IMG/VR virus record: IMGVR_UViG_3300028887_000098
Length of the DNA stretch: 64,000 nucleotides
Reading direction: 5' to 3' (one strand)
Origin: a virus
Taxonomy: Duplodnaviria > Heunggongvirae > Uroviricota > Caudoviricetes
Part shown: piece by piece, positions 46,972 through 55,289 of the stretch
Numbering within the stretch: the stretch's first letter is position 1
Layout: every line of letters starts with the position of its first letter
Position numbers and translations under genes: made by a program
The notes under the pieces: model-generated
The model's database searches: none
Told to the model about the DNA's origin: nothing
The model's input: the letters and a program-made list of their open reading frames with translations, nothing else

Positions 46972-47892
46972 ATGTGGATGAAAACTGCTGAACTTCGAGG
47001 TCATCTCGAAGAAATTGAGATTACTAAAGAACAAATGGATGAATATGTAAAATGTTCTAAGGACATTTTTTATTTTTCCAAATATTTCTATATTTTGAGC
47101 GACGAAGGTGAAATTCCTATCAAGCTTAGAGAATATCAAGACAGAATCGTAAGAATGCTTGTCGCAAAATATTATGACAAGAATAATGTTATTAGAAATA
47201 ACAGAATCATTATGATGGGTCGTCAGTGCGGTAAGACTACTATTGCTACGCTTTATATTCTCTGGTATGCTTTATTTAACAATGATAAGACAATCGCTGT
47301 TTTGGCTAACAAGGAAGACCAAGCAAAAGAAATTATGCTTCGTATTCGTTCAGCCGTATTAAAGTTGCCGTTATGGTTACAACAGGGAATTAATCCTGAT
47401 AGAGGCGGTTGGTCAAAAGAAAGTATCGGTTTTGATAACGGTTCCAAGATATTCTGTGCTGCTTCTGGTTCTTCTGCTATTAGAGGTAAATCTGTTGACT
47501 TGATGCTTGTCGACGAATTTGCGTTCTTGCCTGAAGAAGAAGCTAAGGACTTCATTAAGTCTGTTTTCCCTACCCAATCTGGTAGAAAGGATGCAATGAT
47601 GATTCTTATTTCAACTCCACATGGTATGAATGAATTTTATAACATCTGGATGAAAGCAATTTCTGGTGCAAGTTCTTATGTTCCTGCAAAGATTCAGTGG
47701 TATGAAATTCCTGGAAGAGACGAAGCTTGGAAAAAGAGAATGATTCGAGATTTCGGTATTCAGATGTTCCAACAGGAATATGCTTGTCTAACAGGTGATC
47801 ATAAAATAACAGTTCGATCCGAAGAAGGAATCGAACTGACAGAACCTATTTCAAAGTTATATGAACTTTGGATGGACGGTTTCTTAAGATAA
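46972..47892 (+). CDS. terminase large subunit, N-terminal ATPase half only, ending in a 35-aa intein N-fragment (atypically split intein)
   Basis: REYQDRIVRML ... MMGRQCGKTT (Walker A) ... LMLVDEFAF (Walker B) ... ILISTPHGMNEFYNIW tracks the T4 gp17 ATPase domain (LRDYQRDMLKIM ... LSRQLGKTT ... MIYIEDCAF ... IIITTTPNGLNHFYDIW). Homology stops at ...FQQEYA, where the sequence switches to CLTGDHKITVRSEEGIELTEPISKLYELWMDGFLR and then a stop codon. Confidence 0.85.
   Translation: MWMKTAELRGHLEEIEITKEQMDEYVKCSKDIFYFSKYFYILSDEGEIPIKLREYQDRIVRMLVAKYYDKNNVIRNNRIIMMGRQCGKTTIATLYILWYALFNNDKTIAVLANKEDQAKEIMLRIRSAVLKLPLWLQQGINPDRGGWSKESIGFDNGSKIFCAASGSSAIRGKSVDLMLVDEFAFLPEEEAKDFIKSVFPTQSGRKDAMMILISTPHGMNEFYNIWMKAISGASSYVPAKIQWYEIPGRDEAWKKRMIRDFGIQMFQQEYACLTGDHKITVRSEEGIELTEPISKLYELWMDGFLR
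47785..47892 (+). mobile_element. split-intein N-fragment (IntN, 35 codons + stop) fused to the TerL N-extein
   Basis: Starts with Cys+1 in a block-A-like CLTGDHKITV. Length and pattern resemble the short IntN of the TerL-associated atypical split intein AceL-TerL (CVYGDTMVETEDGKIKIEDLYKRLA). A stop follows, then genes on the opposite strand. Confidence 0.6.
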
Positions 47893-48777
47893 TTTAAAAG
47901 GATCCAAAAACTCAGTATATTCATTGTCTGGATATACTGATGTTTTATTTTGGGTAGGATAATCTTTATATGTTAATTGTTTATCGACATCAATTCTAGT
48001 TCTATTTGATTTTTCTTCCCATTCATTTAATGAACGATGATAATAATGGAATAATTTAATATCCAATTCAGATGGATGCGAATCTAAATAGAAATCCTTT
48101 CCGCAAGTAATTTTTACTTCACTATTATCTGCAAAAACAGTTTTATAAGCAGAAACAACATGAGGACTATTAAATGTAATTCTCCTCATTTTATTTTTTA
48201 AATATTTACTTATAAATGTCTTATATGTCGAATTTGTTGTTCCAAAATAATCTTTAGAAACATATAAGCAATCAGAAATCATAGATTTTGTTCTATCTTG
48301 TGGAGTCTTACCTGATTCATAAGAAATATTGACCATTGGAATACTATATTGAAGAATATCTTTATCTCTTAGAATAGTCAAGAATTCATTTATATTCTTA
48401 TATTTTGTTTTATCAAACCATAGATATTCGTCATCATCGCAATAAAATTGATACGTGTAGTAATTATTAAAATTTGCAATACGAGAATAATAATTTTGTT
48501 GTAACCATGGTGTTTTACGATTGTCTGGTAAATATTCTACAAATACTCTACTATTATCTTTGAATTTTTCTGCAATATCGCAGCATGATTCATTATCTAT
48601 AATATAAACCCTATCAAATCCACACCAATTTAAATAATGGTCAACCCAGTCATCTATATCGAATGGTTTATATATTTTTGTTATTAAAACCACCTCTGAT
48701 GTTACAGGTTCTGTTTTATCAATATTAATTTCTACAGGAGTTTCTCTTCTCCTTCTTCCAAAAAGATGTTTATTCAT
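47884..48777 (-). CDS. putative glycosyltransferase-like protein
   Basis: VVLITKIYKPFDIDDWVDHYLNWCGFDRVYIIDNES resembles the N-terminal nucleotide-binding region of GT-A-fold transferases. DxD-like DDDE is present. Confidence 0.35.
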   Translation of the reverse strand: MNKHLFGRRRRETPVEINIDKTEPVTSEVVLITKIYKPFDIDDWVDHYLNWCGFDRVYIIDNESCCDIAEKFKDNSRVFVEYLPDNRKTPWLQQNYYSRIANFNNYYTYQFYCDDDEYLWFDKTKYKNINEFLTILRDKDILQYSIPMVNISYESGKTPQDRTKSMISDCLYVSKDYFGTTNSTYKTFISKYLKNKMRRITFNSPHVVSAYKTVFADNSEVKITCGKDFYLDSHPSELDIKLFHYYHRSLNEWEEKSNRTRIDVDKQLTYKDYPTQNKTSVYPDNEYTEFLDPFKLS

Positions 48778-54700: not shown

Positions 54701-55289
54701 TACCAGTAGCTATAGATAAAAGTAATGAACCCTTATCTGCTATTTTTTTACTAGCACTTTCTGATGCTGGTGTACTTATTATTAAAGAACCTTCATTAGC
54801 ACTTGCATTATAACCAATAACAGTAGAACATTTATTAGCAGAAACATCTCTACCAATAACTTTAGAACCTTGTAATGCAGTTACCTGATTACCAATGACA
54901 AAACCATCATTTACGTAGTTATCCATACCAAAGACATAACTACCGCCTCTACTATATGTTGCTGTATTAGTAGTAGCGACAACTCTGTTATTTTCACCAA
55001 CAACATAAGCATGACCACTACCTAATATTTCATTATTAGGACCAAGATATATTGCAGAAGCAATAGCAGGATATTCAGCTGTCGAATTATGATTTTCTGA
55101 CCATTGTTTCCAGCTATCACTATTACCTAAATCATTAAGTAAGCTTAAAATGAAATCATCTCTCTCTTTTAATGGTCCAATAGTATTTTTTTGTAACCAA
55201 ACACCATCGGCAACAGTATTTCTGCTCCATTGTGCAACTTTGAATTGTGCACTTGAATTAAAATCTTCTACACTAGGTATATTTGCCAT
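51738..55289 (-). CDS. tail fibre / receptor-binding protein with YadA-head-like repeat array
   Basis: Residues about 120-420 are around 14-residue repeats of the form xGxxSxAxGxxShVIGxxxxAxxxxSxh (for example GSKVIGRDVSANKCSTVIGYNASANEGSLII). Further NxxGxxN-type repeats follow. Confidence 0.6.
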   Translation of the reverse strand: MANIPSVEDFNSSAQFKVAQWSRNTVADGVWLQKNTIGPLKERDDFILSLLNDLGNSDSWKQWSENHNSTAEYPAIASAIYLGPNNEILGSGHAYVVGENNRVVATTNTATYSRGGSYVFGMDNYVNDGFVIGNQVTALQGSKVIGRDVSANKCSTVIGYNASANEGSLIISTPASESASKKIADKGSLLLSIATGNTSATASDGSILISKNSNIAKGGSFVIGESTSADGGSVLVGRNLSANGGSTVIGGNAKATAGALILKHADFGGYSYANGGIVIGDYATAYNGALAMSLNYNFGGDYASHDGIVIGDIASADYGAVVINATNNNKASATTCGIIINAGETNKDRYSVAHGCGIVLGGGSAQYCGAIIGKNNYASNCAFAFGDGNTVKANFAFGINNSAVASTLENYYILSAERDSDGNPILTGAAAAISVSSKAYEPHGFIAGDNNISQTYSPVIIGVANSAALSGGFGEIANYDTTGYKTPNYPIAIGIGNKAYRNFDTTIGSYNVADGGSNLIFGDWCSAAGTRNTILNGYNSSIMGMENLIYGSKSKIFIHEKDNNPTTNRVAFERTSRNILYWSTLSALIMPGAYSWSSPDTFVTDNILKNSNIKFSPYSTSTNCFTENKATYTDINVSHSGQTFFTYNDITGSTINLETNNYTMFNFNKIRLGYKNNENTLNISGKSQYITNNNIDYRGTGKTFNINAWTFSHNDFKYDRSIPIDPATNILNINIPSSYYGVVIENNIYQSIFDINLPVNDKTNYDNNTYVSTNNLFYTKYICDSDKFKVYTLPHYYIEEKHITYPEEHYEYIEHINPYKYAFGNSFVFGGSILNSNRVISFATECNLTGTTNDMNYEYTNISNSNNIINLGDDNEISASIETISFGKTNNIVGGHKTTIFGNENIAYITPVEVDELVTDVESYKQYSGMLPGLYDTNIIGSYNSFMSDVEFDPNDDKHANTIARNFILGYHNDIKVHNFITDNVIIGNNNKTVYEPNDYSDQLYRNKIIGNNNSASNQFADCNILGDNNELNNNSEIVFENDTIIGMHNKIEFGSNSTLIGHHNIVSGYNSVLIGEGLSATNSQVVVGRFNEVLPGTDDRDGQTTTSGALFIVGNGSHSDDDFDNPNRSNAMIVSADGTVSAKTYKADPGTPLGKLFDFLTTATLGTGNLHWDATASAWSIQ

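Follow-up and report, generated by a model that had tools for sequence, protein, structure and literature searches.

We analysed a 64,000-nucleotide stretch of a tailed-phage genome (IMG/VR record IMGVR_UViG_3300028887_000098; hereafter the window), in which a gene for the ATPase half of the large terminase subunit (TerL), here called TerL-N, meets tail to tail a block of glycosyltransferase, lipoprotein and fibre-like genes (Table 1). A first-pass annotation had described the terminase gene as truncated and the block as an inserted island that might have split it. We consider it likely that the supposed terminase fragment is a complete TerL ATPase gene joined to the N-terminal fragment (IntN) of an atypical natural split class-1 intein of the AceL-, GOS- and Cat-TerL type, and that the adjacent block is a late fibre and glycosyltransferase module independent of the split. 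The window (~31% GC) is part of a huge T4-like jumbo rumen phage of at least 349 kb, because the exact TerL-N protein and its relatives lie on contigs of up to 349-424 kb, mostly from ruminant gut. The identical protein was found on 23 metagenomic contigs, to judge by record names mostly from ruminant-gut studies, and including ENA ERZ932019 k127_715098 (349,293 bp; TerL-N at ~251.6-252.5 kb), and relatives of the window are on IMG/VR contigs of 415,750 and 424,163 bp. We found no close deposited phage; the best TerL matches, at ~41% identity, are cyanomyoviruses and the Pelagibacter phage Mosig.

TerL-N is 306 residues long and contains the ATPase domain only (Terminase_6N, 78 bits; match to phrog_5989), aligning with residues ~125-346 of T4 gp17 and with residues 5-264 of Mosig TerL. 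Its C-terminal end reads FQQEYA·CLTGDHKITVRSEEGIELTEPISKLYELWMDGFLR followed by a stop codon, where Mosig TerL reads FQQEFE·CEFLGS (here and below, a centred dot marks the splice point). Cys272, directly after FQQEYA, is the first intein residue (Cys1), and the block-A pattern follows it; both Cys1 and the block-A tail are kept in 18 of 18 IMG/VR relatives and in all of the 120 best homologues (53-90% identity; 5.8e9 proteins searched). The description of this TerL as truncated is misleading, the open reading frame (ORF) being complete and its end an intein N-fragment. Apart from one 218-residue fragment, the 120 homologues are 285-359 residues long, with the ATPase domain alone, then a Cys-initiated tail of ~25-35 residues of the form C-[LICV]-x-G/x…(I/V)x(I/V)…, and then a stop; their contigs reach 250-680 kb. 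Scanning IMG/VR for HN·CEFxG showed more than 340 T4-like TerL genes with an intein at the same site. In most of them the split is of the same atypical kind, with an N-half carrying a 28-35-residue IntN and a next ORF that opens with a 100-125-residue C-terminal intein fragment (IntC). The tail in the window resembles those of 147 split TerL pairs with the IntC gene downstream, and a hidden Markov model (HMM) of 86 such tails gives it 13.6 bits, as against at most 8.2 for 2000 shuffled sequences. The insertion point lies between E264 and C265 of Mosig TerL, where the HN·CEFLGS inteins are inserted as well, among them the AceL-like one of contig L115, presumably the AceL-TerL IntC save for a few substitutions (contigs of other phages carry labels of this kind throughout). 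In T4 gp17 (chains 3EZK and 3CPE) the junction aligns to FRQEHTAAFEG, a position that we take to be at or near the boundary of the ATPase and nuclease domains.

Table 1. Coordinates of the features discussed in the text, in window positions unless another contig is named
Feature	Position	Strand	Remarks
RuvC-like gene	229-918	-	phrog_159; left window end; synteny anchor
gp15-like sheath stabiliser	45465-46910	-	
TerL N-extein (residues 1-271)	46972..47784	+	complete T4-type ATPase domain, last residues FQQEYA; TATAAATA at 46927-46934, 38 nt 5' of the start
IntN, 35-residue N-fragment of atypical split intein, with stop codon (TAA)	47785..47892	+	CLTGDHKITVRSEEGIELTEPISKLYELWMDGFLR
GT1, soluble GT2-family (GT-A) glycosyltransferase	47884..48777	-	PF13704, 36.8 bits (cut-off 27.5)
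unk261, conserved protein, first gene of late unk261-GT1 unit	48779..49564	-	TATAAATA at 49586-49593, 22 nt upstream
SPFH/Band-7 lipoprotein, moron-like	49622..50440	+	Band_7, 112.6 bits; phrog_200 'lipoprotein'
Hairpin between convergent SPFH and unk112	50464..50493	.	13-bp stem then T run; scored as + strand terminator only
unk112, small conserved baseplate/tail-like protein	50496..50834	-	phrog_15542, phrog_1269, phrog_7145; TATAAATA at 50840-50847
GT2, soluble GT2-family glycosyltransferase	50843..51667	-	PF00535, 34.2 bits (cut-off 23.3); phrog_2456
Palindromic terminator-like hairpin between fibre stop and GT2 start	51689..51714	.	
1183-residue beta-solenoid repeat protein, putative virion fibre	51738..55289	-	TATAAATA at 55309-55316, 20 nt upstream
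ORF-free stretch	55290-55731		
cow-rumen-2 RNA (Rfam RF02947)	55527-55633	+	100.6 bits versus gathering score 66, E 3e-18; ~100 nt upstream of unk156
cow-rumen-2 copies in relatives	L005 18080-18186; L009 4894-4998; L405 5257-5362; L384 5185-5290; L404 3706-3811		
DUF7487-family genes	L005 9028-10035; L006 8634-9908; L009 7757-8680; L261 960-2324; L462/L464		
Group-B glycan-type cluster	L008 12327-20907; L018 1902-10212		

The nuclease half and the predicted splicing product

Searches by tblastn with Mosig TerL, with the regular expression HN[CST] and with an HMM of 35 C-halves found no TerL nuclease half in the window or in L003-L023; the flanks of TerL-N thus shown to be free of one extend 47 kb upstream and 16 kb downstream in the window and 10 kb in each of 18 relatives. 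Scans for HNCEFxG at the DNA and peptide level returned hundreds of marine split TerL genes and missed the clade of the window, because its junction is HN·CSF. A scan for the DUF7487/PD-(D/E)XK endonuclease family, members of which lie beside TerL-N in L005 and L006, recovered L261. There a TerL-N on the minus strand (72% identical to that of the window) is followed by an endonuclease gene and by a 348-residue ORF with an IntC (NGLINHN·CSFLGSS) and a nuclease domain. In L309-L311, the N-half (minus strand) and the C-half (plus strand) are adjacent and divergent, with 107 nucleotides between them. A profile search then yielded ~110 clusters of stand-alone C-halves of 344-400 residues, with PF17289, an IntC of 100-102 residues and the invariant junction HN·CSF[IL]GSS; pairing N-halves with these clusters through their 'longest_contig' values proved unreliable.

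The C-half of a close relative was found by scanning JGI metagenomes, in Ga0265298_10000003 (L405), a contig of 415,750 bp and thus of the same size as IMGVR_UViG_3300028832_000001, which holds L005. In this relative the C-half lies at 45231-46283 on the minus strand (L405 10001-11053 in local coordinates) and the N-half at 104931-105848 on the plus strand (93% identical to that of the window), 58.6 kb apart. The C-half opens with a 101-residue IntC, ending VIHHN·CSFIGSS, and continues with the Terminase_6C nuclease domain. L405 252-1218 corresponds to window 972-3 at 88.5% nucleotide identity, and the position of TerL-N extrapolated from this match is at most ~3 kb off the observed one; it is almost certain that L405 and L005 belong to a single contig and that this contig is collinear with the window. 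The order RuvC-like, NT5C-like, …, gp51-like, RegA, …, TerL-C is shared by L384, L404 and L405, and the RuvC-like gene (229-918) keeps its synteny with the TerL-C region in L384, L405 and L309. By synteny, the C-half of the window phage would lie on the minus strand 8.8-9.8 kb to the left of window position 1, ~56 kb from TerL-N. Contigs with the exact RuvC-like protein stop ~1.1 kb beyond the left end of the window. We also considered the RuvC-like ORF itself as a diverged TerL nuclease and rejected it: it matches neither the C-half HMM nor Terminase_6C, and has a RuvC PHROG match and a weak RuvC NCBIfam match. This resolvase may be a functional analogue of T4 endonuclease VII in packaging.

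Spliced in silico, the N-extein of the window (271 residues) and the C-extein of L405 (250 residues) form a 521-residue, collinear T4-type TerL. The product aligns with residues 18-521 of Mosig TerL (E 3e-106) with no gap at the junction (FQQEYACSFIGSSNTLIS versus FQQEFECEFLGSVNTLIS), and matches both Terminase_6N (1-212 of 215 profile positions) and Terminase_6C. The fusion of IntN and IntC matches the CatC fragment PDB 6DSL_B (E 3.6e-5) and, more weakly, the gp41-1 intein. When the structural model of the C-half was searched with Foldseek, nearly all of the 36 best matches were inteins, headed by the VidaL, gp41-1, RecA and DnaB inteins (probability 1.00), together with gp17 of T4 and RB49. 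The assignment to the atypical split inteins is thus based on Cys1, a short IntN followed by a stop, an IntC partner (in relatives), insertion at the same TerL site and homology to solved inteins.

Protein trans-splicing is the mechanism expected to join the two halves. The partner gene would supply a 101-residue IntC (blocks B, F and G, with a His-Asn end) followed by Cys+1 and the TerL nuclease domain; after translation, IntN and IntC would associate, fold into a HINT domain and splice in trans, linking FQQEYA to CSFIGSS in a normal TerL of ~521 residues with the junction peptide DFGIQMFQQEYACSFIGSSNTLISGNVLEK. One may object that the halves never splice, either because the intein fragments are a mere dimerisation interface or because the ATPase half partners with a different nuclease, for instance the RuvC-like protein, which is encoded in the window and syntenic with TerL-C; two-piece enzymes do exist in T4-like phages (PMC2677866). 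We regard this as quite improbable, given that all catalytic positions are kept (Cys1 in 120/120 N-halves; the block-B (S/T)xxH His, the terminal His-Asn and Cys+1, invariant in the alignment of C-halves), that the closest solved homologue, CatC, belongs to an actively trans-splicing family (PMC11766414), and that the TerL nuclease domain is still present in the C-half. We also rejected the idea that a group I intron or RNA splicing underlies the apparent truncation, with the halves on opposite strands, the tail intein-like and no intron found by Rfam.

Several points weigh against a trans-spliced TerL in this phage. The HMM score of the IntN tail is modest, and the model of the C-half has low confidence (predicted local distance difference test, pLDDT, 41), being confident only for residues ~20-80. 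The single-contig status of L405 and L005 derives from equal record size and from coordinates collinear to ~3 kb. The C-half is outside the window; that this very genome has it is deduced from synteny with relatives at 88-93% nucleotide identity in the regions compared. Finally, trans-splicing is here a prediction from sequence.

The closest precedents are inteins at the same place in other phages. A gp17-like terminase has been described as 'fractured at an unusual point', with a C part of 122 residues that has all motifs except N1 (Dassa et al. 2009, PMC2677866). PMC11766414, citing Thiel 2014, Bachmann & Mootz 2015 and Stevens 2018, gives AceL-TerL (25+104 residues), GOS-TerL (37+115) and Cat-TerL (30+104) as active trans-splicing inteins. 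That the TerL intein is an atypical split intein of this known family, its halves here dispersed in a jumbo rumen phage, is well supported. The likeness to AceL-, GOS- and Cat-TerL extends to the T4-type TerL host protein, the insertion at the ATPase/nuclease boundary, Cys1 and Cys+1, a short IntN (35 residues here; 25, 37 and 30 in the known cases) and a long IntC with all motifs except N1 (101 residues here; 104-122 in the known cases). The differences are the C-extein, CSF(I/L)GSS here versus CEFLGS; the carriers, rumen and gut jumbo phages versus marine and lake T4-like phages; and the arrangement of the halves, which are adjacent in the known cases and here, by synteny, 56-59 kb apart on opposite strands.

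A further comparison is with the 'fractured genes', in which split-intein halves flank a free-standing homing endonuclease gene (PMC2677866). The sister lineage L261, the only one with an endonuclease gene between its halves, is similar, and the same endonuclease family is found beside TerL-N in L005, L006, L462 and L464. However, the halves of L261 and L309 are divergent rather than co-directional, those of the window clade are tens of kilobases apart, and the window has no endonuclease gene at TerL-N; adjacent co-directional halves with an endonuclease gene between them occur neither in the window nor in 18 relatives. For the cyanobacterial DnaE split intein, dnaE-n and dnaE-c lie hundreds of kilobases apart on opposite strands. 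It offers the same logic that is predicted for TerL, an essential enzyme from two distant, opposite-strand genes rejoined by protein trans-splicing, but has a canonical split site (long IntN, short IntC), is cellular and resides in another host protein. The Jug jumbo gut phages (PMC12880540) resemble the window phage as huge T4-like gut phages with terL in pieces, adjoining endonuclease genes and ruminant relatives. Their pieces, though, lie side by side on one transcript and are joined by RNA splicing of group I introns, whereas here the halves carry intein fragments and lie on opposite strands; therefore, RNA cis-splicing of the Jug type cannot join them.

The division of TerL goes back to the ancestor of a large clade of jumbo phages from gut and rumen. 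These phages are abundant, and an enzyme essential to their virion assembly appears to need protein trans-splicing. Since 'TerL' in this clade consists of an ATPase-only ORF of ~300 residues and an ORF of ~350 residues elsewhere, pipelines relying on TerL to assess completeness, assign taxonomy or build trees would call a truncation or join the wrong pieces. In some phages the halves are adjacent and divergent, in others as much as 59 kb apart, a series that shows the dispersal of a fractured gene through genome rearrangement. The searches brought up more than 100 atypical IntN/IntC pairs from nature in which the +1 context (CSF) is new; they are candidate orthogonal reagents for peptide ligation. 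More speculatively, the packaging motor of the clade might rely on trans-splicing between genes of two distant modules under different regulation, with the split intein kept as a timing or compatibility lock rather than as a selfish relic; we think this has only a slim chance of being right. If it were, nuclease-competent TerL would arise only once both modules are expressed, one holding the N-half and late tail genes and the other the C-half next to regA and baseplate genes, and hybrid terminases in co-infections or recombinants would be blocked by co-evolving IntN/IntC pairs.

The terminase split and the neighbouring block

The proposed link between insertion of the block and the splitting of TerL is refuted by synteny comparison: TerL-N has the same intein end where the block is absent, reduced or elsewhere. 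The downstream neighbour of TerL-N is GT1 in the window, L003-5, L016/17, L391-400 and L462-465 (group A), unk261 in L006, gp15 in L007-10 and L018 (group B), and a w31540/prohead-protease module in L011-15 and L019/20 (group C). Beside these four different neighbours, the length of TerL-N (306 residues) and its intein tail are unchanged. The DNA between the two TerL halves is that on the 5' side of TerL-N, with the head, baseplate and tail genes of the window, and the block is on the 3' side; it is not between the halves, because the C-half lies on the opposite (5') side of TerL-N. That an insertion into or next to terL split the terminase would agree with the start of the block right at the TerL-N stop codon, where TerL-N overlaps GT1 by 9 nucleotides, and with the polymorphic homing-endonuclease genes around TerL-N. 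Yet the same 306-residue TerL-N with its intein end occurs in relatives without the adjoining block, the tail being present in 120/120 homologues down to 53% identity; the nuclease half is on the other side of TerL-N, 56-59 kb off and on the opposite strand; and the halves of sister lineages adjoin each other without any such block in between. The idea has, in our judgement, next to no chance of being correct. Among the 150 nearest representatives at 50% identity, split, contiguous and intein-containing TerLs are intermixed, and the closest contiguous one (524 residues) is 52% identical.

Beside TerL-N we observed polymorphic insertions of a homing-endonuclease-like family with a Zn-finger, a 'KYG-repeat' and a PD-(D/E)XK domain (DUF7487; Table 1). 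The window has no gene of this family at TerL-N, and a nuclease-less remnant at 13254-14114 (minus strand) instead. A co-occurring rumen jumbo phage, L285 (IMGVR_UViG_3300028797_000098, 203 kb), has a contiguous TerL of 744 residues on the minus strand (ORF from 4870; 39% identical to TerL-N); therefore, split and unsplit TerL types share one habitat.

The block itself does not behave as an inserted island, as had been suggested. We found no flanking direct repeats, no integrase and no compositional break (GC 0.26-0.35, inside the range of the window), and its genes are lost piecemeal, in L006 and L009, around the conserved unk261 and unk112. On contigs with an identical TerL-N, GT1, unk261, SPFH and unk112 are 96-100% identical. 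In relatives at 93-98% TerL-N identity, unk261, SPFH and unk112 are 79-93% identical, GT1 52-57% and GT2 65-75%, and the fibre can be aligned at its ends only (37-57%). Taken gene by gene, unk261 is 82-91% identical in close relatives and still present at 53% in L009, and unk112 is 76-93% identical in all relatives, L009 included; GT1 and GT2 are absent from L006 and L009. In L009, only unk261 and unk112 are kept between gp15 and cow-rumen-2/unk156, with GT1, SPFH, GT2 and the fibre gene absent. Many relatives with different fibre alleles share the full gene order. In the same place, group-B relatives have a larger glycan-type cluster comprising a Methyltransf_24 protein, a TupA-like ATP-grasp enzyme and 3-4 GT2_4/GT92 glycosyltransferases. 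The block would thus be a syntenic module of late genes with two conserved members at its core, unk261 and the baseplate-like unk112, around which accessory or hypervariable genes have gathered: GT1, GT2, the SPFH moron and the beta-solenoid fibre. Of the swappable receptor-binding and glycan-modification cassette envisaged earlier, the variable glycan- and fibre-related module is borne out and the single inserted cassette is not. As an ordinary hypervariable fibre and glycosyltransferase module, the block is useful for host-range work and unsurprising.

Predicted expression and function of the block genes

The genes of the block lie where the first-pass annotation had placed them, with SPFH as the sole plus-strand gene, and its naming of two glycosyltransferases and an SPFH lipoprotein was sound. 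GT1 and GT2 have Pfam GT2 domains above the gathering score and DxD motifs (DDD in YCDDDEY and DGD in FIDGDSW, respectively), and neither has a transmembrane segment. SPFH combines the Band_7 domain with a signal peptide and lipobox Cys; its probable start is at 49667 (MKKIYS…LFTGC), and the signal/lipobox segment, IFIMLAFALFTGC, includes AFALFTGC and has a hydropathy peak of 1.95. The matches of unk112 to PHROGs of 'tail sheath' and 'baseplate wedge subunit' have E values of 2e-10 to 2e-5; unk261 has no family match in Pfam, PHROGs or NCBIfam. On the 349-kb contig (L391 4808-5584, ENA k127_715098) gene calling splits unk261 into two ORFs (127 and 106 residues), which is either a frameshift or an assembly error.

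The T4 late-promoter consensus TATAAATA occurs 42 times in the window, as against 15.7 expected, and none of 100 shuffles reaches 42. Most copies are intergenic, just 5' of gene starts and in matching orientation, including those 5-40 nucleotides upstream of TerL-N, unk261, unk112, the fibre gene and unk156 (another is at 55720-55727). This enrichment suggests a T4-like late transcription system. SPFH has sigma-70-like sites upstream and no TATAAATA. Terminator-like hairpins are likewise enriched (17 versus 3.4 expected). The strong terminators said to flank the block do exist at internal and right-hand sites (50464-50493, 51689-51714 and 56551-56577) and not at its left edge, where TerL-N and GT1 overlap tail to tail by 9 nucleotides. 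From its position, the hairpin between SPFH and unk112 may serve in both directions. A hairpin with an 11-bp stem (CAGTTCGATTCC…GGATCGAACTG) lies at 47810-47838, within the IntN-coding end and 46 nucleotides past the GT1 stop on the minus strand; it may be the terminator of GT1.

We tentatively favour a virion fibre together with enzymes that would glycosylate a virion protein, possibly the fibre, as the function of the block, because late-promoter motifs precede the fibre gene, the unk261-GT1 unit and unk112; we would not call this reading probable. Instead, GT1 and GT2 might act on phage DNA or, with SPFH, on the host envelope for exclusion or seroconversion: phage GT2-family enzymes often serve seroconversion, T-even phages glycosylate their DNA, and the SPFH lipoprotein moron sits between the two genes. 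Both enzymes, however, lack transmembrane and signal segments; GT1 starts 1 nucleotide past the stop of unk261, itself preceded by a late-promoter motif, and GT2 comes after the fibre gene in the same orientation; and GT1, GT2 and the fibre are jointly present, jointly absent (L009) and jointly divergent. Moreover, genes for DNA modification and host takeover are normally early. A host-envelope or DNA target is therefore rather unlikely in our estimate. Virus-encoded glycosylation of virions is known elsewhere, for example in the capsid glycans of chloroviruses. As with the mycobacteriophage glycosyltransferases (PMC11256854), soluble GT2-type enzymes are found here among late structural genes, and group-B relatives add a methyltransferase and further glycosyltransferases; unlike there, the link is here one of position and co-variation only.

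The 1183-residue protein has a 13-residue (39-nucleotide) periodicity rich in G, A and S in residues ~70-480. Residues 1-150, 450-550 and 850-1150 are conserved and residues 150-450 and 550-850 hypervariable. The repeats reported for this protein are real; their likeness to the YadA head is not supported, there being no profile or significant fold match and a compositional resemblance only. We found no YadA or Hep_Hag family in Pfam or NCBIfam, no PHROG and no PDB sequence match, and the beta-roll family PF21300 scored below its threshold (21.6 bits < 30). Its AlphaFold model is of low confidence (pLDDT 52) and consists mostly of short beta-strands. Fold searches gave weak, insignificant beta-helix matches only (PL6 alginate lyases, autotransporter passengers and the P22 tailspike, E ~0.5). 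Its homologues are 21 among 5.8e9 proteins, all from metagenomic assemblies and 987-1392 residues long, save for one marginal match of 1688 residues.

Given those folds, the lack of homology to known fibres and a conserved C-terminus with a variable centre, the protein might be a surface or decoration protein of another beta-helix type, or an enzyme that degrades polysaccharides, rather than a receptor-binding tail fibre. We deem this unlikely: the gene has a late-promoter motif and lies near a baseplate-like gene, and its hypervariability is limited to two segments on near-identical backbones. Identity falls to 67% on backbones with an identical TerL-N, for example on a contig of the size of L394 (25,915 bp). 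The reading of the block as a virion fibre with its glycosyltransferases still has to contend with the absence of detectable homology to any characterised tail fibre, with a C-terminus, not a tip, as the most conserved part, and with GT2, which has no late-promoter motif of its own and lies behind a terminator.

The ORF-free stretch noted earlier beyond the fibre gene is present and contains a copy of the cow-rumen-2 RNA (Table 1). The copies in relatives score 100-108 bits against the gathering score of 66. The RNA lies upstream of unk156 in L005 and L009 too, and each genome has a further copy (at least 2 in all) in front of a gp51-like baseplate gene near TerL-C. Each of the two shares the strand of the gene that follows and lies ~100 nucleotides 5' of it. 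In these jumbo phages the element looks to be a 5' leader or a regulatory element, and an orphan metagenomic Rfam motif thereby gains a genomic home.

Outside the block, the T4-type functions of the window include gp5- and gp25-like baseplate proteins, a prohead protease and a head-completion protein, and its replication and recombination genes include UvsW, UvsX and a gp41-like helicase. Two alleles of the gp15-like gene exist on contigs with a 100%-identical TerL-N (that of the window compared with L391, L399 and L400), one at 84-85% identity (458 residues) and the other at 98-100% (481 residues), and unk588 is only 45-59% identical in close relatives; together, these differences indicate strong mosaicism around TerL-N.

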